Shown here: piece after piece, positions 22,892-32,772 of the stretch
Layout of the letters: every line of letters begins with the position of its first letter
Numbering within the stretch: position 1 is the first letter of the stretch
Assembly (NCBI GenBank): GCA_021648085.1
Contig: JAKITS010000001.1
Coordinates: forward strand, 618,759-682,758
Source: Candidatus Magasanikiibacteriota bacterium
GTDB lineage: Bacteria; Patescibacteriota; Patescibacteriia; Magasanikbacterales; UBA922
DNA: 64,000 nucleotides
Reading direction: 5' to 3'
Made by a program: the position numbers and the translations under genes
The notes under the pieces: generated by a model
What the model saw: the letters and a program-made list of their open reading frames with translations, nothing else
Database searches by the model: none
What the model was told of the DNA's origin: nothing

Positions 22892-25009
22892 TTATTCAAA
22901 CAAAATTTCATCTCCAACAATAAACAACTGCTCGCCTGTCACATCATCCACTGCAGTTCCTCTTACTTTTGAAGTTAAGTTTGTCTGACTTGGGTTTTTT
23001 TGATTCAAAATTATATTAAACTGGAGTGCCAGAACATCTATACTTGTTGGCATTTCTGGAATAGTCCAAACAACTTTTTTGTTTTCTATGTCATATTGCA
23101 AATTTCCAGCAGGCACAGAAAGTGTGCTTGGATCCCACACAAAATCTCCATATAAATCAGCTTCAAATTTTAAATCCTTTAGATTGTGGAATGAGTTTGA
23201 TAGTAACCAAGTTATAGAATGAACATCTCGACCGTCAGAATCTTGACTTATTTCATCGGAAACCTGCAAATCTATGTCAGAATTAAGTTTAATAACAATT
23301 GGACTACTAGATAAAAACTCCCTTCCTTTTAATGTATCATATTGAATCTCAACAGTAGCTATTATTTCATATTTTGCAAAATCCGCAAGAGTTATCTCGC
23401 TATCTGTTTTAACAGGCAAGTGGTAATCTATTAAGACACTCTCCCCCAAAGAAATAGATCTCAATTCTGCAATATCCCCACCATCCCAAGTTATGTGTCC
23501 TCGTCTAATATCCACACTTCTTTGTTCCCCAAAAACATCTCCGCTATTTGGATCGTCTAATTTTATCCAATTTAATACACTCCTTTTATTTACAGAAGGT
23601 GCGTCAAAAATCATCCTTACTCGAACATTTGATATTATACTCTCTCCAGCATTTGAAACTGTAATAGTCCCATTCAACACATCTCCAGGTATCGCTGTGC
23701 TATTTTTTAACGAACCGTTTATAGCAAGCTGTGCGGAAATGCTCTTCTCCAAAATTGTAGGACTATAGCTAGATGTTGCAAAAATATAACCATCTCCAAG
23801 ATTTTCTGAATCTTTCCAACCTATCAAACTCGCCATTATAGAACTATCGTCATAATCTCCGAGATTAAAGATACCTTTTATGTCTACTATTTTTTCACCT
23901 TCTAAAATAGGAATTGACCATACAAAATTTTCAAACTCATCACTTTCTGGGATACTCTCTACTTTTGAGAATCCAGCAAAAGGCGTTAATACTAATGCTA
24001 AATTTTCAATACTTTTTTCGCTTGTATTTTTTAGCAAAACTTTAAACTCTGTTTCCACACCAGCAACAACAGCATCGACACCTTCAAAAGACAGTTCAAA
24101 GACGGAGTCTGTTATTTCTGTACTAAGATTGGCAACCTGCTGAAAATCTGAACTAAAATTATCAGGAGTATAATTGAAAAATATCCTAAAAGACTGTTTC
24201 TTGTTTATATCCCCATAAAGTTTTCCAGATATATCAATATAAGTTCCATCTTGTCCTGCAACCTCTCCTATAATCCACTTATCATTTGTTTCATTTGACG
24301 GCTCAATACTACTCTCAACAAACACAAAACCTTCTGGATAACGAATTTCTAATTCTACATTTTTTAATACACTATTTTGTAAATTTCTATATCTAACCCT
24401 ATAGCTCACATCTTGTCCAGCTGTCACAGCTTCATCTCCAACTATTGTTAGTAGCACATCTTCTTCTGAAAACTTACTACTAGAACCAAGTACAAAAAAA
24501 CCAAGCCATGCCACAAGACCTAAAAATAGCAGTGAAGAAACTAAAACACTAAGAGCTTTTAGAAGTGGACCCATCTTCTTTTTTTTCTGAAATTTACTCA
24601 TATCTGGAATTGTGCCATCCTCGTTTTCATAAATCTCCAAAAGTGCTTTATCCACATCATCATCTTTTTTTTGATGCTTTTTCTTTTTCATAAGTTTTTT
24701 CATACCACCATGTTTTTTCTTTTTTAGTGGTTTCAATATTTTTTCCACAAAACCAAACATTCCAACATCTTCTTTTTCTTTATGTTTTTTTTTCTTTTTT
24801 TTATGTTTCTTAATCTTTTTTTCTTTTACACTTTTATCTTTGTCAAAACTCTCAAATTTATTATTATTTTTATGCTTTTTTTTCTTCTTTTTTTTATGTT
24901 TTTTCTTGTGTATATTTTTCCCATCTTCTTCCAATTCCAAATAAATATCCTTTTCTTCAGATTCGTCTTTTTTATGTTTTTTACTTTTTTTGTGTTCTTT
25001 TTTAGACAT
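22892..25009 (-). CDS. Large membrane-anchored surface protein. It has an N-terminal poly-Lys/His cytoplasmic tail, one TM helix and an ~530-aa extracytoplasmic beta-rich domain
   Basis: 705 aa. The first ~150 aa are about 45% K/H (HKKKHKKKKKKKHK). The hydrophobic helix LLKALSVLVSSLLFLGLVAWLGFFVLG follows. It lies 10 nt downstream of the 25020..27653 gene. Confidence 0.6.
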   Translation of the reverse strand: MSKKEHKKSKKHKKDESEEKDIYLELEEDGKNIHKKKHKKKKKKKHKNNNKFESFDKDKSVKEKKIKKHKKKKKKHKEKEDVGMFGFVEKILKPLKKKKHGGMKKLMKKKKHQKKDDDVDKALLEIYENEDGTIPDMSKFQKKKKMGPLLKALSVLVSSLLFLGLVAWLGFFVLGSSSKFSEEDVLLTIVGDEAVTAGQDVSYRVRYRNLQNSVLKNVELEIRYPEGFVFVESSIEPSNETNDKWIIGEVAGQDGTYIDISGKLYGDINKKQSFRIFFNYTPDNFSSDFQQVANLSTEITDSVFELSFEGVDAVVAGVETEFKVLLKNTSEKSIENLALVLTPFAGFSKVESIPESDEFENFVWSIPILEGEKIVDIKGIFNLGDYDDSSIMASLIGWKDSENLGDGYIFATSSYSPTILEKSISAQLAINGSLKNSTAIPGDVLNGTITVSNAGESIISNVRVRMIFDAPSVNKRSVLNWIKLDDPNSGDVFGEQRSVDIRRGHITWDGGDIAELRSISLGESVLIDYHLPVKTDSEITLADFAKYEIIATVEIQYDTLKGREFLSSSPIVIKLNSDIDLQVSDEISQDSDGRDVHSITWLLSNSFHNLKDLKFEADLYGDFVWDPSTLSVPAGNLQYDIENKKVVWTIPEMPTSIDVLALQFNIILNQKNPSQTNLTSKVRGTAVDDVTGEQLFIVGDEILFE

Positions 25010-25019
25010 AAGACAATGT

Positions 25020-27653
25020 TTAATTAATTTCCCCTTCTATAACGGCACCAAAAACAGTATCGCTTTGAAGTATAGAATTATATTGAAGTAAATTATTAAA
25101 TTTTAATTTTGAATTGTCAGACTTCCAAATAAAATCCCAATCATCAGGAATTTTTACACTAGAACTAAAACCACTGTTAATTCCAGACTGTTTTTGCAGA
25201 ACCAAACTATATTTTAGCCTATTTTCATCATTGGACAAAAGTGAATTCCAAAAATTTTCACCTTTAATCTCTCTTGGTTGAACTGTCGGAATTTTGAATG
25301 GCAGTTTATATATAAAATAAATCTCACTCTCTCCACCCGGATCTGTGGACACCCAATTACCAAAGACAGTTTTTCCAAATTCTTTTGTAATTCTAGTGCC
25401 TGTTTTACTGTGAATTCCCACCTCCTTTTCAAACTGCGCTATAGACAGATCTTCTTCGTACCAATCCTCTGAAACATGAAATGCCCCTTCCGCAGGATAA
25501 GAAAAACCACCAGCCTCCAAAAGCTCTGAGCCTTCTGGAACATAAGCACGCACATAACTTATATTTCTAACACCACTGAACATTTCACCATCTATACCAG
25601 TATGTTTTTTCTTTATTATAACTTTATCCACAATAGAGCCATCTTTTTGAATAAACACTTCATGTTCAATATTTTGTTCTATTTTTTTATCACTTTTTTG
25701 ACCTTGCAGGTTTGCACTCACAATATTTAAATAATCCTGATCTTTATTTGTATAACTTATTTCACCAGACCAGCCAAAATCACGCACTGTTTTTTGCAAT
25801 TTTCTATCAAAGAAAAAAGCCTGAACTTCTTTTTCTTTTAATGCTTGATGAAACTCATTGAGTACGCGAACCAAATCTATATTATCTAAACCCTCAAACT
25901 GAACAAACAAATCATCCACAAGCTCTCCTATAACTTCTTTTGGTTTATTTTCTATTTTGTCATAATTAATCTCTACTTGATACTGCAAATCATCTATTGC
26001 AGTATCGCCCATCAGTTCTAAATTATGTTTTTCGCTAGTTATAGAACCCACCACTTTCAAAACTCTCTCCAAAACTGTGGCGTTTACTGCTATCACACCA
26101 TCTACTGTTGTACCCCTACTATGCTCATAAAACCAAGCCATCTTTTGTGCAGAAATCCCAAAATCTGGAAACCAGTTTGAATCTTGAAATTCCCACCTAC
26201 TATTTACCAATTGTAGTGGTAATGGTGGAGTTAAATAAGCGTCTAACTGTCCCTTTAAATCATAGCTTCCACCTCCTGGAATATCTATATTTTGAATTCT
26301 ACCTTTTTGAATATCTATAATTGCAAAACTCCCAAGAAAACCACCAGTAGGACGAAGTTCATTATTATTTTGAAAAACTAGTAGATACCTTCTAAAATCG
26401 TCGCTACCCAAAATAAGCTGAAGAGTATCTATAAGCTGGACCAAATCACCCAAATCCTCTATAAAAACACCGAATAAAATCTGAAACTCTTTAAATTCAT
26501 CCCTATACTCTTTTGGGATAATCTTTGGATCCACACCGCTCAACTCTCTAAAAGCATTTTCATATTGTGGTAAAGCACTATTTAAATGCTCGCTAATTAA
26601 AGCTATTTTATCTGTTGCATTTAATCCATCTTCAGTAGCCTCACCAATACCTTTTACTATGTAAGTATTCGCAAGTGCCATACTTTGTCCAGCACTTAAC
26701 AAACTCTCCCTACTTTTCATACTCTTACCAAAAATAGGCAATACTCGCAAAACACTCATCAATATTTTATTCTCTGAGTCTAATAATTTTTTTGTATTAT
26801 TGAAATATTCCAATGTATTATTTAAGTCTGTCTGTGCCCCACTAATATCTGAATTTAAGGCTAATAGAGTAGAAGAATGTAACCCAACTAAAGCCTGTTT
26901 ACTACCTTCTACTATCTGTTCACTAGTTGTACGAACCTGCTTAAAATACCCAACAGTTGGAATTGGAATAGCGACTAACAAAAACATAACAACGCTCTGG
27001 TATGCCATTTTTTTCCATGTAAAATTTCCAACCCATTTTTTAAAACTCAACCTTGATAAAGAAAAATTTATTTTTGTTTTAAATAATTTAATTTTGGATG
27101 AAATACCAGTAAAAAAACTAAATTCATTTTTTACTTTATTTTGCTTTTCAGTTTTTTCTATTTTTATCTTTTCCTTTTTCTTCAAACTCTGTGCTTTTTT
27201 TATTTTTTGAACATCTATTTTTTCTATCCTCCCTCTATTCAACTCTTCTTTTAAAATAAAATTACTACTTATATTTTTATTATCCAACTCTACCTTTCTT
27301 CTTTGATTTGCCTTTCTCACCAAATTTGCAAAATTTACACCTACAGTATTTTGTATATTTTCTTTTTCTTTATACACCTCTACTTTCGCGGGTTGTTTTT
27401 TTAGCTCTCCGCGCAAATTTACAATATGTGGAGACCTCATCATTTTTTCTTCACCACAAACAACCACCTTTGGGTATTTTTTGGTGGTTTCTATTTTAGT
27501 CTCTATAAAATCATCTCCTACAAAAACTTCTCCAACTTCTATATCTAACTCTTCTGCAATCACTTTCTCTGGGCAAGTCCTAGAATTATGCCCCATTTTT
27601 TTACAACCAGTACAGGATCTTCTTTTAATTTTATTTCTTCTTACTCTTGGCAT
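25020..27653 (-). CDS. Large membrane protein with an N-terminal CCHC zinc-knuckle-like motif and a DUF4012-like C-terminal region
   Basis: 877 aa. The N-terminus contains CTGCKKMGHNSRTC (C-x2-C-x4-H-x4-C). A TM helix lies around residue 215. The block RRYLLVFQNNNELRPTGGFLGSFAIIDIQKGRI matches the DUF4012 family as I remember it. Confidence 0.6.
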   Translation of the reverse strand: MPRVRRNKIKRRSCTGCKKMGHNSRTCPEKVIAEELDIEVGEVFVGDDFIETKIETTKKYPKVVVCGEEKMMRSPHIVNLRGELKKQPAKVEVYKEKENIQNTVGVNFANLVRKANQRRKVELDNKNISSNFILKEELNRGRIEKIDVQKIKKAQSLKKKEKIKIEKTEKQNKVKNEFSFFTGISSKIKLFKTKINFSLSRLSFKKWVGNFTWKKMAYQSVVMFLLVAIPIPTVGYFKQVRTTSEQIVEGSKQALVGLHSSTLLALNSDISGAQTDLNNTLEYFNNTKKLLDSENKILMSVLRVLPIFGKSMKSRESLLSAGQSMALANTYIVKGIGEATEDGLNATDKIALISEHLNSALPQYENAFRELSGVDPKIIPKEYRDEFKEFQILFGVFIEDLGDLVQLIDTLQLILGSDDFRRYLLVFQNNNELRPTGGFLGSFAIIDIQKGRIQNIDIPGGGSYDLKGQLDAYLTPPLPLQLVNSRWEFQDSNWFPDFGISAQKMAWFYEHSRGTTVDGVIAVNATVLERVLKVVGSITSEKHNLELMGDTAIDDLQYQVEINYDKIENKPKEVIGELVDDLFVQFEGLDNIDLVRVLNEFHQALKEKEVQAFFFDRKLQKTVRDFGWSGEISYTNKDQDYLNIVSANLQGQKSDKKIEQNIEHEVFIQKDGSIVDKVIIKKKHTGIDGEMFSGVRNISYVRAYVPEGSELLEAGGFSYPAEGAFHVSEDWYEEDLSIAQFEKEVGIHSKTGTRITKEFGKTVFGNWVSTDPGGESEIYFIYKLPFKIPTVQPREIKGENFWNSLLSNDENRLKYSLVLQKQSGINSGFSSSVKIPDDWDFIWKSDNSKLKFNNLLQYNSILQSDTVFGAVIEGEIN

Positions 27654-27962
27654 GAAAAGATAATAAATTTATATATTTATAAATCTACTACATTATACCA
27701 TATTTCTTAATTGCAAAAAATGTCTTATTTTAAGTAAAAAATAGGTTTTATCCACAGGCTTAAAAAAGACTAATTTAATAAAATAAAAAAAGACTTAGAT
27801 TAAACTAAGTCTTTTGAGTTTTTATATACTTATTTTTTATTGATGAAGCTCAAGGATATTTTGATTCTAGAGAATGGCAAAATATACCACCTTTAATTGA
27901 AAAGATCTTCCTGAACCAATTAAAACTTAACAAAAAAAGTCAAGGTTTTATACTTAACTTTT

Positions 27963-29081
27963 TTATTTATAAATTTCTATTGTCTCCTCCACCATTTTTT
28001 TCCAAGAATATTTTTTCAGAACTCTTTTGGAATTCTCTTGAAGTTTTTTTCTCTCTTCCTTGTTTGTTAAATTTTTATAAATTACTTTTGCCATTTCCTG
28101 ATAATTTTCTGGATCAAAATAATTTGCAGCGTCCTCCAAAATTTCCGGCATACAACTTCTGTCTGAACTCACCACCGGCACACCATACTGCATAGCTTCG
28201 AGCGGTGGAATACCAAACCCTTCGTACAAACTTGGAAAAACATAAAGACCACATTTTTTGTACAATTGAGAAAGCTCTTCATCTGGCACAAAACCTGTTA
28301 TTTTTATAGATTCACTCAAATTTTTATCATTATATTTTTCAACTTCTTTTTGAAGTCTTTTATAAAAATAGTTTTCTTTACCAACCAAAACTAACTGATA
28401 ATTCTTACTATATTTTTCTATAAAAAACTTCCAAGATTTTACCAACATTTCCAAATTTTTATGAGGAAAAGCATTTCCAACATACATTACAAAGGGTTTT
28501 GTAATATTATATTTTTCTAAAACACTTTTATCAGCCCCGCCTATCTTTTCTAGCGAAGCTTCATAAGTAACTACTATTTTTTCCTGTTTTACTTTCGAAG
28601 TTTTTATTAAATCATTTTTTACAAACTTACTTACAGTTATTATCTTTTTACTATTATTTGTGGCGTGCCAAAGTATAATTCTAAAAAATATATACTTTAG
28701 AAAATATAAAACAGGATTCAAAGTACTCGCTCGCCTATTTGGATAATGAAGTAATATCAAATCGTGGATTGTCACCACAAAAGGTGCTCGATAAAAAAGT
28801 GGTACATTCCAATGTGGAAAGTGCATCAAATCTACACCTTCTTTTTTAATTATTTTTGGAAACAAAAGTTGTTCACCTTTTCCATACCAATGAATATCTG
28901 CCAAAACTTTTTTAAATTTAGGATTTTTTGTTTCAAACAAATTAAAATTATCCTCCTTCAAAAAAATTACATATTCATTTTCAGAATCAATTTCTACTAA
29001 ATTTTCTAATAACTTTTGAATATATCGCCCAAGCCCTGCCTGTTTTGGACCGTACATCCTTGCGTCAATTCCTATCCTCAT
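27963..29081 (-). CDS. Glycosyltransferase, GT4 (GT-B fold) family
   Basis: 372 aa. Typical N-terminus MRIGIDAR..GLGRY and the C-terminal E-x7-E region (FPSLYEGFGIPPLEAM). Confidence 0.75.
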   Translation of the reverse strand: MRIGIDARMYGPKQAGLGRYIQKLLENLVEIDSENEYVIFLKEDNFNLFETKNPKFKKVLADIHWYGKGEQLLFPKIIKKEGVDLMHFPHWNVPLFYRAPFVVTIHDLILLHYPNRRASTLNPVLYFLKYIFFRIILWHATNNSKKIITVSKFVKNDLIKTSKVKQEKIVVTYEASLEKIGGADKSVLEKYNITKPFVMYVGNAFPHKNLEMLVKSWKFFIEKYSKNYQLVLVGKENYFYKRLQKEVEKYNDKNLSESIKITGFVPDEELSQLYKKCGLYVFPSLYEGFGIPPLEAMQYGVPVVSSDRSCMPEILEDAANYFDPENYQEMAKVIYKNLTNKEERKKLQENSKRVLKKYSWKKMVEETIEIYK

Positions 29082-29082
29082 A

Positions 29083-30237
29083 TTATATTACACTACTTAA
29101 AGCTTCAATCCACTGCTCGGCAGATTTTACCCAAGAAAACTCATAACTTTTTTTATACCCCCTATCAATTAACTCATTTCTAAGATAATAATCCGATGTT
29201 AAAAGTTGCATCCCTTTTGCAATTTCTGCAATATCGTGTGGATTTACCATAAAAGCAGAATTTCCAACTACTTCTGGAAGTGAAGATCTTGAACTTGTGA
29301 TTACAGGCGTACCCACACTCATAGCCTCGAGTACTGGGAAACCAAACCCCTCATAAAAAGAAGGGTATACAAAAATACTTGCCAACTCATAAAACACCCT
29401 CTTTTCTTCTGGGCTTATATAACCAACATATTTTATTTTTTTATTTTTACCAATTCTCTCCAAAAGTTTTAAACACTTCCAACCCTGTGCTCCAGCAATT
29501 ATTAGCTCATATTCTTGCGCATAAGAATTCTTTCTTTGCCAAAGCAAAAATGCATCGACCACACCATCTATATTTTTTCTTGGTTCTATAGTTCCTAAAA
29601 AGAAAACAAATTTTTCTGGCAAACCATATTTAATTTTTATCTTTTGTACAGATTCTGTGTCTTGTTTCAAAAATAATGTAGAAAGCCCTGGTTTTATTAC
29701 TTTTATTTTTTTCTCCCCTACCCCAAAATAATTTACAACATCGTTTTTCGTATTTTCTGAAGGTGTCAAAATTAAGCTAGCTTTTTTACATTGCCTTCTT
29801 ACTCTCACACATTTGTGCCAAATTCTACGCTTTATAGAAAAAAAATCTTTAAAAAATACAAAAGACAGGTCATGAATTGTAAGGATGTGAGGAATTTTTG
29901 GACCAATAGAAGTAAAATGAATATTCGGACTATAAAACAAATCTATCTCAACCTCTTTAACTAAATTTTTAGAAATTATTTTATTTAGATAAGGTCTTTT
30001 AAACAAAAACAAACTACCACTCAATAATTTATTTGGCCAACTAGTTTTTATATAATACACATTTTCAACCTTTGGAAACTGTGAAGTACTTATATCTTCT
30101 TTTAGGGAATTATAAAATAAATAATAATTATTCTTCTTATCCTGCTTTAAAATACTGGAGATTAATTCCACAGTATATTCCCCAACACCCGTCTTCACAG
30201 AACCAGTCAATGACCTTATATCTATTCCTATATTCAT
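29083..30237 (-). CDS. Glycosyltransferase, GT4 family
   Basis: 384 aa. MNIGIDIR...GVGEY, and YPSFYEGFGFPVLEAM. Confidence 0.75.
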   Translation of the reverse strand: MNIGIDIRSLTGSVKTGVGEYTVELISSILKQDKKNNYYLFYNSLKEDISTSQFPKVENVYYIKTSWPNKLLSGSLFLFKRPYLNKIISKNLVKEVEIDLFYSPNIHFTSIGPKIPHILTIHDLSFVFFKDFFSIKRRIWHKCVRVRRQCKKASLILTPSENTKNDVVNYFGVGEKKIKVIKPGLSTLFLKQDTESVQKIKIKYGLPEKFVFFLGTIEPRKNIDGVVDAFLLWQRKNSYAQEYELIIAGAQGWKCLKLLERIGKNKKIKYVGYISPEEKRVFYELASIFVYPSFYEGFGFPVLEAMSVGTPVITSSRSSLPEVVGNSAFMVNPHDIAEIAKGMQLLTSDYYLRNELIDRGYKKSYEFSWVKSAEQWIEALSSVI

Positions 30238-30239
30238 AA

Positions 30240-31334
30240 TTAAATTAAAGACTTTTTGTACTCATTTTCTATCAAATTTACAACCCTCTCTTTGAATTTT
30301 TCTTCACTAAACTCTTCAACGCTTTTTCTTATTTCTATACTATTCCATACCCTATCATCAAAATTCAAAAGTTTATGCATCAGAGATTCCCATGTTTGCT
30401 CATAGAAAAAAGTTCCAGTTTTACCTTCTTGTACTGTTTCCAAGACTCCACCTTTTGCATAAGCGATTACAGGCCTACCCGAAGCAATAGATTCAAGCGG
30501 TGTAATCCCAGAGTCCTCAACTTGAGGATGAACAAAAGCACGAGCACGACTTAATAATTTTGCTTTTTCATCATCAGAAATTCTACCCACAAATTCTATA
30601 TTTGATTTTGCAATTTTTTGCAATTTTTCTAGCTCTGGACCATCACCAAAAATTTTGACAGGCCAACCCAACCTATTAAAAACATGTACTATCAGATCAA
30701 ATCTCTTGTATGCCACCATTCGCCCGCCAGAAACAAAATAATCACCAATCTCACCAGAAATAAAAAACTTGTTCACATTTATTGAAGGGTAAACCACCTC
30801 ACTATTTCTGTTGTAATATTTCTTTATTCGCTTCTGAACAATTTTTGAGTTCGCAATAAATTTATCCACTCTGTCTGCACTTGTTCTATCCCAAATTCGC
30901 ATTTTATGGATAAGTCTTGGAAGTGCAAGTTTAATCAATTTGTTGTATTTTAAATTTGAAATATACTCATGAGTATCTGTCCAAAGATATCTTGTCGGTG
31001 TGTGACAATAAGAGATATGAACAGTATTTGGATCTGTAATCACACCTTTTGAAAAAGCACTCGCAGAAGACAGAACAATATCAAAACCCTTCAAATTGTG
31101 ATGTTCCGTAGCCAAAGGCATAAATGGCAAAGTCCACTGATAATGAGATTTTATAAAAGGTATTTTCGCCAAAAAAGATTCTCTAATATCAGAATTATTA
31201 AATTGTTTCAATTTTTCTCTATCATGAAAAAGCACAAAAATTGGCGCTTCTGGCCAAATTTCACTAAATACTTTTAATACTTTCTCTGCCCCTCCGTCTT
31301 GAGATAAATAATCATGTACCAACGCAACTTTCAT
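30240..31334 (-). CDS. Glycosyltransferase, GT4 family
   Basis: 364 aa. MKVALVHDYL...GGAEKV, and HPQVEDSGITPLESI. Confidence 0.75.
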   Translation of the reverse strand: MKVALVHDYLSQDGGAEKVLKVFSEIWPEAPIFVLFHDREKLKQFNNSDIRESFLAKIPFIKSHYQWTLPFMPLATEHHNLKGFDIVLSSASAFSKGVITDPNTVHISYCHTPTRYLWTDTHEYISNLKYNKLIKLALPRLIHKMRIWDRTSADRVDKFIANSKIVQKRIKKYYNRNSEVVYPSINVNKFFISGEIGDYFVSGGRMVAYKRFDLIVHVFNRLGWPVKIFGDGPELEKLQKIAKSNIEFVGRISDDEKAKLLSRARAFVHPQVEDSGITPLESIASGRPVIAYAKGGVLETVQEGKTGTFFYEQTWESLMHKLLNFDDRVWNSIEIRKSVEEFSEEKFKERVVNLIENEYKKSLI

Positions 31335-31353
31335 ACAACAATAACTTCTTAAA

Positions 31354-32772
31354 TTACAATTCCCTTCTTTTCTTTAGAATGATAAATGGGGTTTTTATTA
31401 AAACAGTTAGATCTAAAAACATCCTCCAATGTTCTATATAAAAAATATCCAACCTTAGCTCCTCTTCATAAGACAGGTCGCTCCTGCCTGAAATCTGTGA
31501 AAGGCCTGTAATTCCAGGCTTTACAAAGAAAACCTTTTTATGTACTTTTTCATATTTTTCTACTTCGCGTGGCTGATGTGGACGCGGACCTACCACACTC
31601 ATTTGCCCTCGTAACACATTGAAAAAATTTGGCAATTCATCTAAACTCCACCTTCGTAAAAACTTACCAAAAGGTGATACACGAGGATCGTTTGCAATTT
31701 TATAAATAGGCCCAGTCTTACCATTTTGCTTTTTAATAAGCTCTTTTTCTTTTTCTTCTGCTTTTTTTCCAGCCCTACCAAATTGTGACCCAGTAGAATC
31801 TTTCTGATACATTGAGCGAAATTTATAAACAAAAAATCTATGAGAGCGAGCGCCAACTCGTTCGTTTTTATAAATAAAAGGTCTGCCAGTTTCTATCAAA
31901 ATTATAATAGAAATCAAAAGCATTAAAGGGCTTGTGAGTATCACAATAACAATACTTACAACAATATCTAGCAATCGCTTTATTACTCTCCCCCACCCAT
32001 CCAAACGAGTTCTTTTAAGCTCAATGATTGGAATCCCAGCAAGTGCACTAATAGCAATATTTGTAGAATACGATGTAAATAAATCTGCTGAATATTTAAA
32101 CACAATTTGCTTTTCATTACAAAAATTAATAGCACTTAAAGTTTCCCTTTCGTCTGCTCTTGGATTTACAAAAATAATTTCATCTATATCTTTTTTTAAC
32201 AATCTTTCTTTTGCAGTCTTATTGAAAGAAACATAAGTTCTTACAACTTTATAACCCAACTCTTTTCTACTTTTTAAAGTTTTTATAATACTTCTTGCAA
32301 TGTCTTCTTGACCTATCACTACGACTTTGCGCAAGCCAACCCCACCTCTATAAAGCAAACTCTTTAAACCCCTTATCACAATACGCCCAAAAGACACATG
32401 AAGAATAGCAAAAATCCAAGTAAACAATACTAAAAATCTAGAATCAAAAAGTAATTGTGCAAACAACATATAAAGTGCAACCGCAGCCAAACCAAGACTA
32501 CAACCAACAAAAACCTGTTTCAATTCTCCTGAAAATTTCTTGTTTGGATCTACCGAATATAAACCAGCAAAAGAAAAAAGCAACAACCAAACTAAAATCA
32601 CATAAAAAGACAAATTCAGATAATCAGCTAAAGATAAATCAAATAAAACTGGTCTCAACTCTACTACAAAATCCATTGAACGAATATAATAAGCAGACAA
32701 TACTGCAAACATCAACATTAAAAAATCAACTGGTAATTTTAGCATCATCAAAAAAAGTTCAAATCGCTTCAT
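31354..32772 (-). CDS. Polyprenyl-phosphate sugar phosphotransferase (bacterial sugar transferase, WbaP/CpsE-like initiating enzyme)
   Basis: 472 aa with N-terminal TM helices. The C-terminal catalytic domain has PFIYKNERVGA, FRSM, and DELPNFFNVLRGQMSVVGPRP. Confidence 0.8.
   Translation of the reverse strand: MKRFELFLMMLKLPVDFLMLMFAVLSAYYIRSMDFVVELRPVLFDLSLADYLNLSFYVILVWLLLFSFAGLYSVDPNKKFSGELKQVFVGCSLGLAAVALYMLFAQLLFDSRFLVLFTWIFAILHVSFGRIVIRGLKSLLYRGGVGLRKVVVIGQEDIARSIIKTLKSRKELGYKVVRTYVSFNKTAKERLLKKDIDEIIFVNPRADERETLSAINFCNEKQIVFKYSADLFTSYSTNIAISALAGIPIIELKRTRLDGWGRVIKRLLDIVVSIVIVILTSPLMLLISIIILIETGRPFIYKNERVGARSHRFFVYKFRSMYQKDSTGSQFGRAGKKAEEKEKELIKKQNGKTGPIYKIANDPRVSPFGKFLRRWSLDELPNFFNVLRGQMSVVGPRPHQPREVEKYEKVHKKVFFVKPGITGLSQISGRSDLSYEEELRLDIFYIEHWRMFLDLTVLIKTPFIILKKRREL

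Follow-up and report, generated by a model that had tools for sequence, protein, structure and literature searches.

Why would a bacterial membrane protein begin with a CCHC zinc knuckle, an element generally regarded as characteristic of retroelements and of RNA-binding proteins in eukaryotes? The question is raised by the gene of a DUF4012 envelope protein in a stretch of 64,000 nucleotides from a Candidatus Magasanikiibacteriota bacterium (GenBank assembly GCA_021648085.1, contig JAKITS010000001.1, positions 618,759 to 682,758 of the forward strand; G+C content 32%), which we call the window. The gene content of the window is typical of the Candidate Phyla Radiation (CPR), with NusB, RNase III, BipA, RNase J, Ddl and a TyrS/TrpS-type synthetase, and the host belongs to a lineage of ultra-small bacteria that is probably episymbiotic. 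The first-pass annotation of the window had drawn attention to an exact C-x2-C-x4-H-x4-C spacing within the first 30 residues of the protein, embedded in a Lys/Arg-rich segment, and we recovered both: in the N-terminal sequence, MPRVRRNKIKRRSCTGCKKMGHNSRTCPEK, the motif occupies amino acids (aa) 14–27, and the first 35 residues hold 11 Lys or Arg versus 3 Asp or Glu. The gene product is 100% identical to NCBI entry MCF6276850.1 (DUF4012 domain-containing protein, Candidatus Magasanikbacteria); that annotation had also called it giant, which is an overstatement for a protein of 877 aa. The gene and its parts lie as follows.

25020..27653, minus strand: whole gene of the DUF4012 envelope protein with N-terminal zinc knuckle (open reading frame listing; ATG start, 877 aa)
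27615..27653, minus strand: basic leader MPRVRRNKIKRRS, aa 1–13, with a conserved R at −2 and R/K at −1 from the first Cys
27573..27614, minus strand: CCHC zinc knuckle CTGCKKMGHNSRTC, aa 14–27 (motif scan; predicted ligands C14, C17, H22 and C27)
27279..27476, minus strand: second conserved block of the predicted cytoplasmic tail, aa 60–125 (alignment columns, locus comparison)
26940..27008, minus strand: single transmembrane helix (signal anchor), aa 216–238 (Kyte-Doolittle; helix in model)
26409..26939, minus strand: long helical stalk of the ectodomain, aa 239–415 (AlphaFold model)
25977..26396, minus strand: Pfam DUF4012 core (alpha/beta), aa 420–559 (PF13196, E = 1.2e-25)
25023..25736, minus strand: beta-sandwich-rich C-terminal ectodomain, aa 640–877 (strand pattern; predicted local distance difference test score, pLDDT, mostly 80–97)

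Identity of the N-terminal motif

By spacing, signature and predicted fold, aa 14–27 is a CCHC knuckle, and we infer that it binds one Zn2+ through Cys3His. When a 30-column profile of the family was compared with the PDB, CCHC knuckles were the only significant matches, led by T. brucei RNase D (7c45; 6e-6), the Xrn2 knuckle (7pvm; 2e-4) and HIV NCp7 (1.5e-3), with TUT4/7 next. Structure prediction of the N-terminus, a check that had been proposed together with the motif, modelled the knuckle with pLDDT values of 82–87 (82–83 at residues 11–30 of the full-length AlphaFold2 model, where the flanks are disordered, and 87 over the knuckle core of an isolated 30-mer). Foldseek comparison of the isolated model with the PDB placed CCHC knuckles in all of the top 24 ranks, among them RNA-bound Lin28, MLV NCp10, TUT4, HIV-2 NC, RNase D, Xrn2, RBBP6 and RecQ4; these superposed over 17–27 columns with a root-mean-square deviation (rmsd) below 1 Å for about half and up to 5 Å for the others, and, the query being only 30 residues long, none of the E-values (all ≥1.6) was individually significant.

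Pfam profiles told a more mixed story. The 20-mer of the query itself stayed below every gathering threshold (zf-CCHC_2: 15.9 vs 27 bits; zf-CCHC: 13.7 vs 20.8 bits; zf-CCHC_6: 12.9 vs 22 bits), and of the two profile searches originally suggested, the one for DUF4012 gave a match above the cut-off and the one for zf-CCHC, with the query alone, a match below it. Across 80 family members, the same region matched zf-C2H2_10 (PF16588) in 56, zf-CCHC_4 in 47, zf-CCHC in 43 and zf-CCHC_2 in 35; the best zf-C2H2_10 match reached 6.9e-7 and one member exceeded the PF16588 cut-off (28.2 vs 26.2 bits). PF16588 has been annotated alongside PF00098 on a LINE-1 open reading frame (10.1101/706580).

The knuckle resembles those of retroviruses and eukaryotes (PF00098 and relatives) in ligand spacing, in the Gly before the His and in the basic residues after the His, but differs from them in occurring only once, and right at the N-terminus of a bacterial protein that crosses the membrane a single time. 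It also departs from the nucleocapsids in carrying Ser/Thr directly after the first Cys (position Cys+1) and Asn/Thr/Asp after the His: the base-stacking features of nucleocapsids, namely an aromatic residue at Cys+1 and a hydrophobic residue after the His, are lacking in this subtype, as judged from the 97-sequence alignment of motif-bearing homologues described below. That aromatic/hydrophobic pair defines the nucleocapsid binding mode, not the knuckle fold. The description of the motif as a retroviral/eukaryotic-type CCHC knuckle on a DUF4012 protein is supported by the spacing, the PDB profile and the predicted fold, with the base-stacking residues and the Pfam score of the query as caveats.

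Conservation and distribution of the knuckle

We then asked how far the motif is kept among relatives of the protein, using the 120 best database matches (39–72% identical). The exact C-x2-C-x4-H-x4-C pattern is present in 97 of these within the first ~40 residues, always at the extreme N-terminus, 3–40 residues from Met1. In the alignment of these 97 sequences C14, C17, H22 and C27 are invariant, which answers favourably the ligand-conservation check that the first-pass annotation had proposed, and G21 is nearly so, Gly standing directly before the His in 96. The family consensus reads R-[RK]-C-S-[VLI]-C-x-K-x-G-H-[NTD]-K-R-x-C. Basic residues are conserved at −2 (R in 85/97), −1 (R/K in 75/97), +5, +10 and +11; the residue at Cys+1 is Ser in 80, Thr in 9 and Ala in 3 sequences, the residue after the His is Asn in 47, Thr in 40 and Asp in 10, and Cys+2 is the sole hydrophobic position. 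The ligand codons vary (TGT and TGC, CAT and CAC are all in use) and the mean nucleotide identity across the knuckle is 0.57, indicating that the constraint acts on the protein. From this pattern of conservation we conclude that the knuckle is maintained by selection at the amino-acid level.

Several of the remaining homologues merit a closer description. P0052 has a CCHH variant, CSICNQSGHNKSGH; in two of the 120 the gene was called with its start inside the knuckle; and P0040, which appears to lack it, is a truncated gene call with the knuckle in frame upstream. P0034 is truly without a knuckle, having a stop codon just 5' of its start. P0115 (945 aa) carries two tandem N-terminal knuckles, ~24 residues apart, an arrangement also found in nucleocapsid proteins.

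Could the motif nevertheless be an artefact, that is, a chance pattern of Cys and His, or part of an untranslated region whose true start codon lies downstream? No Shine-Dalgarno sequence precedes the ATG of the window, nor that of most of 26 homologous loci, and this, together with the sub-threshold Pfam scores of the query, could be taken that way. The motif, however, occurs once in a six-frame translation of the window, where amino-acid frequencies predict 1.4e-4 occurrences in the long open reading frames, and in the 1.44 Mb made up of the window and 80 related loci, six-frame open reading frames of at least 60 codons gave 27 motifs observed vs 0.23 expected, every one of the 27 at the N-terminus of the DUF4012 gene. 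The ATG at 27653 is the only start codon 5' of the motif, an in-frame stop lies five codons further upstream, and the next Met after Met1, M20, is within the knuckle itself; since a stop is so near on one side and M20 lies inside the motif on the other, translation must start upstream of the knuckle, and not downstream of the motif as had been named as a way to refute it. Adding the invariance of the ligands amid varying synonymous codons and a monophyletic distribution (see below), we regard the chance of an artefact as negligible; a chance motif or wrong start codon is ruled out by conservation, codon usage and start context.

A scan of 185,579 species genomes yielded 80 related loci (L001–L080). 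Of the 27 closest (L001–L027), 26 have the knuckle; in the exception, L016, masked bases cover the N-terminus. The named genomes among these 27 are Magasanikbacteria or Patescibacteria. Many genome records with this CPR operon (L001–L004, L007, L009 and others) are titled 'uncultured Gammaproteobacteria bacterium' (metagenome-assembled genomes, MAGs, marked TPA_asm); the titles conflict with the gene content and with the Magasanikbacteria relatives and are probably placeholders or taxonomic errors. Among L028–L080 no knuckle was found in the 50 homologues with a readable N-terminus, which lie in the same operon; these are DUF4012 proteins of CPR lineages outside the Magasanikbacteria (Uhr-, Falkow-, Kerfeld- and Kuenenbacteria, Parcubacteria and others), and in this respect they are unlike the query.

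When the ectodomains were placed in a neighbour-joining tree, a single clade of 30 tips contained all 27 knuckle proteins; its other members are L016 and the sister pair L028/L029, whose N-termini are acidic. Because the knuckle proteins share this single clade, one gain followed by a few losses accounts for their distribution, and on the evidence of the tree we place this gain at the base of the Magasanikbacteria.

The same subtype of knuckle turned up in quite different company. A search of 1.84 billion representative sequences with the knuckle profile retrieved 2566 proteins at E ≤ 1e-3, and the best 150 of these 2566 are multi-knuckle proteins with 2–11 copies and the signature R[KR]-C-S-x-C-G-x-x-G-H-N-x-R-T-C-P; single-knuckle bacterial architectures rank below the best 150 because the scores of several knuckles add up. 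Pfam models identify their repeats as zinc knuckles, and the Pfam partners of the multi-knuckle proteins are copia gag, MULE/SWIM, SAP, WGR, GIY-YIG/T5orf172 and kinase domains. In IMG/VR, at least 120 contigs (L083–L202) matched a degenerate DNA pattern that encodes C-[ST]-x-C-x3-G-H-[NT]-x-R-T-C, where we estimate that chance would give a handful, and the matched contigs include giant-virus MAGs and phage-type contigs. The viral knuckles often stand at the extreme N-terminus (MPCSxC... or MARCSYCY..GHNRRTCP), as in a portal protein (L172; phrog_12, 1.2e-7), and a recurrent two-knuckle family of ~250 aa adjoins phage ATPase phrog_1297 (2e-53), phrog_1314 (2.5e-56) and a phage sigma factor. 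Viral carriers of the subtype include, besides L172, L108, L129, L142 and L160.

On these sequence matches, the knuckle subtype is not restricted to eukaryotes and retroviruses, and it is conceivable that phages were the source of the knuckle in the CPR. The viral and multi-knuckle proteins share with the query family the R[KR] before the first Cys, the Ser at Cys+1, and the GHN and RTC elements; unlike the query, they are soluble, lack a transmembrane helix and DUF4012, and in many cases have 2–11 knuckles. The knuckle and the DUF4012 domain are each of a known kind, and we found no description of their fusion in the literature searched; public annotations of family members read only hypothetical, uncharacterized or DUF4012. 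Nor did that literature document a resemblance to the N-terminal CCHC motifs of plant single-MYB proteins, and we make no use of such a resemblance. The fusion had been called unusual at first pass, which fits with its being undescribed in the literature searched, but fits less well with the frequent N-terminal occurrence of this knuckle subtype in viral proteins.

The tail, the ectodomain and the gene cluster

The strongest Kyte-Doolittle 19-mers of the protein start at aa 216–222, the only strongly hydrophobic stretch, which places the transmembrane helix ~190 residues past the knuckle and agrees with the ~180 residues noted at first pass. The tail in front of it is 215 aa long, basic (54 Lys or Arg vs 26 Asp or Glu) and modelled as largely disordered, and the protein has four Cys, three of them knuckle ligands and none in the ectodomain. 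Since no signal peptide precedes this long charged tail, which holds the zinc/Cys site, and since the ectodomain is free of Cys, the tail is predicted to be cytoplasmic, with the N-terminus inside.

Behind the knuckle, the tail has a second conserved block with the pattern VxVxV...SPH[VI][VI]xL[KR], then W..V.VY.E, then a helix VDFAxMVRxAN (aa 108–125). Its SPH motif extends from S74 to L80 (nt 27414–27434), with S74 invariant and H76 and L80 at least 90% conserved. The model gives pLDDT <50 for aa 36–104, with one modelled helix at 108–125, and comparison of the block with Pfam, PHROG and NCBIfam gave no match; it may be a binding motif. The form SP[HY][VI][VI]x[LF] is kept in many CPR homologues without a knuckle (the motif was seen in L028–L031, L043, L055, L056, L060, L067, L078 and L079), so that the block is more widespread among CPR DUF4012 proteins than the knuckle, which was added upstream of this older module. 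Ahead of the SPH motif, knuckle proteins carry a median net charge of +12 over 60 residues. What stands at the position of the knuckle differs in knuckle-less proteins of other CPR lineages (L041, L046, L047, L060, L078 and L079; L044, L051 and L061): one group, of Uhrbacteria type, has an acidic [FY]DDALPERL motif there, and another has long, histone-like tails rich in Lys, Thr and Ala (net charge +49 in L044 and +34 in L051).

On the other side of the membrane, the stalk is modelled as helices at 230–266, 270–293, 306–339, 346–372 and 381–415 (pLDDT 75–95), and the full AlphaFold2 model, made with the family alignment, has a mean pLDDT of 77, an alpha/beta core that spans aa 420–650 and beta-sandwich domains at aa 655–877. 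The PF13196 match scores 91.1 bits vs a gathering cut-off of 28 and aligns 140 of 144 model positions, and the block RRYLLVFQNNNELRPTGGFLGSFAIIDIQKGRI, which had been read as DUF4012-like, sits within it. Invariant charged or polar residues of the core include R422, E432, R434, R486, E488 and D491, and a beta-loop-beta pattern with invariant Arg, Glu and Asp was noted around RYLLVFQNNxELRPTGGFxGSF. NCBIfam and PHROGs scans of the protein or its tail matched no family. Against solved structures, Foldseek and a profile search of PDB sequences gave no convincing match to the ectodomain, the beta-sandwich matches being weak and partial. The LCP protein YvhJ (3nxh) appeared at rank 34 of the Foldseek list as a weak match (E = 0.019, template-modelling score 0.44 on the target, rmsd 14 Å); no LCP chain was among the PDB sequences matched by the ectodomain profile, and a regular-expression scan of the 1.44 Mb of related DNA found no LCP-type protein. 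That DUF4012 proteins are remote, LCP-like glycopolymer transferases is a weakly backed possibility, raised by the beta-loop-beta pattern with its invariant residues together with the YvhJ match.

The DUF4012 gene is the fifth of six in a cluster (window positions 22892–32772) of a priming transferase, three GT4 glycosyltransferases, DUF4012 and a DUF11-repeat protein. The neighbouring features are these.

31354–32772, minus strand: Bac_transf priming phosphoglycosyl transferase (Pfam)
30240–31334, minus strand: GT4 glycosyltransferase (Pfam)
29083–30237, minus strand: GT4 glycosyltransferase (Pfam)
27963–29081, minus strand: GT4 glycosyltransferase (Pfam)
27788..27815, minus strand: terminator-like hairpin between the last GT4 and the DUF4012 genes (11-bp stem and T-run)
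27692..27700, minus strand: candidate extended −10-like element TGgTATAAT, ~38 nt upstream of the ATG (read by eye)
22892..25009, minus strand: downstream DUF11-repeat partner, 705 aa, with a Lys/His-rich predicted cytoplasmic tail and a transmembrane helix (Pfam DUF11, TIGR01451)

Comparison of the neighbours by tblastn showed that most of the 80 CPR loci keep this gene order, with or without the knuckle, and that the DUF11 gene lies immediately downstream of DUF4012 in nearly all of them. The tail of the DUF11 partner (KKHKKKKKKKHK...) is extremely rich in Lys and His and has an L-x-EIY-x3-DG-x2-PDM motif just before its transmembrane helix that recurs in nearly all loci. No flippase or polymerase gene was found within the six-gene cluster. 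The cluster looks like an uncharacterised, CPR-wide module for an envelope glycan or surface layer. DUF4012 also adjoins a priming transferase in an exopolysaccharide cluster of Bifidobacterium longum 105-A (PMC5412050) and has been noted as a family common to CPR and Gram-positive bacteria (PMC6744442); the closest known counterparts of the query in this respect are DUF4012 proteins of exopolysaccharide or capsule clusters, such as BL105A_0406 of B. longum 105-A, and the CPR-enriched family fam000574, with which it has in common the domain and a cluster that holds a priming transferase and glycosyltransferases.

As to transcription, the hairpin is a perfect palindrome with T-runs on both strands (two terminators called vs 0.1 expected), and it may act as a bidirectional terminator that splits the cluster into two transcription units. 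The TGgTATAAT sequence is a putative −10 element that was not among the hits of a consensus scan. L024 and L027 each have a TATAAT box 6–7 nt 5' of the ATG, which suggests leaderless transcripts in these two loci. An 81-aa Phe-rich open reading frame on the plus strand (24782–25027), which lies antisense to the DUF11 gene at its Lys-rich 5' end, is no gene but a mirror artefact of poly-AAA/AAG coding.

Possible functions and meaning

What might the knuckle do? The core job of the DUF4012 protein would be extracytoplasmic, where it would handle or attach either the glycan that the cluster produces or the surface protein with DUF11 repeats, and the knuckle would be an accessory, lineage-specific module outside the core mechanism of the family. 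Our preferred interpretation, held tentatively, is that the knuckle and its basic flanks would act as a small zinc-stabilised clamp for a polyanion, most probably single-stranded RNA or DNA. A polyanion is suggested because the conserved non-ligand residues are basic, because Lys-rich tails occur elsewhere in the family and because the knuckle is duplicated in P0115; the poly-Lys/His tail of the DUF11 partner was counted on the same side. Single-stranded RNA or DNA would be the best candidate ligand since every characterised knuckle of the same fold binds such ligands. Such a clamp would keep nucleic acid, either mRNA with its ribosome or the nucleoid, at the membrane by the envelope machine.

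A number of points weigh against the polyanion clamp. A single knuckle alone usually binds weakly, and CCHC knuckles also mediate protein-protein contacts, as between Air2 and Trf4. The residues of the guanine pocket of retroviral nucleocapsids are missing, so that a different binding mode would be needed, and the query motif is sub-threshold for the Pfam knuckle families. P0034 and the close relatives L028/L029 manage without a knuckle, and no nucleic-acid-related gene was found among the Pfam-annotated neighbours in the operon.

The main rival is that the knuckle and the SPHVVxLK block serve protein docking, recruiting a cytoplasmic protein (a GT4 enzyme or the priming transferase of the cluster, the DUF11 partner through its tail, or a protein of the cytoskeleton or of cell division) and so coupling glycan synthesis to the extracellular DUF4012 machine. 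We consider this possible though somewhat unlikely. Several short conserved motifs in a disordered tail are typical of interaction motifs, the N-terminal module swaps by lineage (knuckle, DDALPERL, Lys-rich tails) as it would with co-evolving partners, and the operon is tightly syntenic, with a DUF11 partner that has a conserved cytoplasmic motif of its own (EIYxxxDGxxPDM); the absence of base-stacking residues from the knuckle points the same way. There is also a parallel in RodZ, whose helix-turn-helix (HTH) domain of DNA-binding type is used to bind MreB. The basic flanks and the duplicated knuckle of P0115, however, suit a polyanion better than a docked protein, and all of the closest solved relatives bind nucleic acid. 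Both ideas find precedents among single-pass proteins in which a small cytoplasmic N-terminal domain is followed by a linker, one transmembrane helix and a large extracytoplasmic domain, such as ToxR/CadC (winged helix), RodZ (HTH) and the zinc-binding anti-sigma factors: the plan of ToxR/CadC is one for binding DNA or RNA at the membrane and that of RodZ one for docking by a 'DNA-binding' fold. The query shares this plan as architecture, not as homology. A Pfam search of residues 1–240 for HTH or winged-helix (Trans_reg_C) domains, up to E = 10, gave no match, unlike ToxR/CadC; the H-x3-C-x2-C motif of anti-sigma factors is absent from the tail, where C-x2-C-x4-H-x4-C is the only Cys/His cluster and no anti-sigma Pfam family matched.

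Two further explanations appear improbable to us, the strong positive charge in and around the knuckle being at the root of one of them. In that one the basic knuckle would bind the anionic head groups of phospholipids and pin the tip of the tail, which the transmembrane helix tethers beside the membrane, to the inner leaflet. The knuckle, however, offers no amphipathic or hydrophobic surface, with Cys+2 as its sole hydrophobic position, and ~190 residues separate it from the transmembrane helix; we know of no lipid binder among its matched PDB relatives, which also counts against a membrane anchor. The other would make the knuckle a zinc or redox switch, on the model of zinc-binding anti-sigma factors and Hsp33, which sense zinc or oxidative stress, or else a stability cap that protects the tail from proteolysis or fixes its N-in topology. 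Its invariably extreme N-terminal position would suit such a role, as would the concentration of three of the protein's four Cys in the knuckle and the tolerance of its loss in some lineages, but the conserved Gly, Asn/Thr and several basic residues besides the ligands argue for a recognition surface, and the annotated neighbours include no sigma factor, regulator gene or target regulon.

A more far-reaching version of the nucleic-acid reading strikes us as distinctly unlikely: a knuckle of virus or eukaryote type, acquired possibly from phage, would now bind RNA or DNA while tethered to the membrane as part of an envelope-assembly protein. If this were true, nucleic acid (mRNA and ribosomes for co-translational insertion, or the nucleoid) would be physically coupled to the place at which the cell makes its surface glycan or surface layer, and such a link between nucleic acid and the envelope is undescribed in bacteria. 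If the knuckle were a mere docking or stability tag, it would still be a tidy case of domain accretion, of local interest.

Whichever of these holds, a CCHC knuckle is here fixed and selectively kept throughout a CPR lineage, in a membrane protein whose gene cluster is conserved among CPR bacteria and uncharacterised. That phage and giant-virus proteins so often begin with a knuckle of this subtype hints at a broader class of single N-terminal knuckles among the viruses of prokaryotes, of which we found no description. Organisms of the CPR cannot be grown alone, and a peptide of 30–60 residues, which is easily synthesised, offers a rare experimental entry point. For the family as a whole, the cytoplasmic tail of DUF4012 proteins emerges as a site of lineage-specific module swapping.

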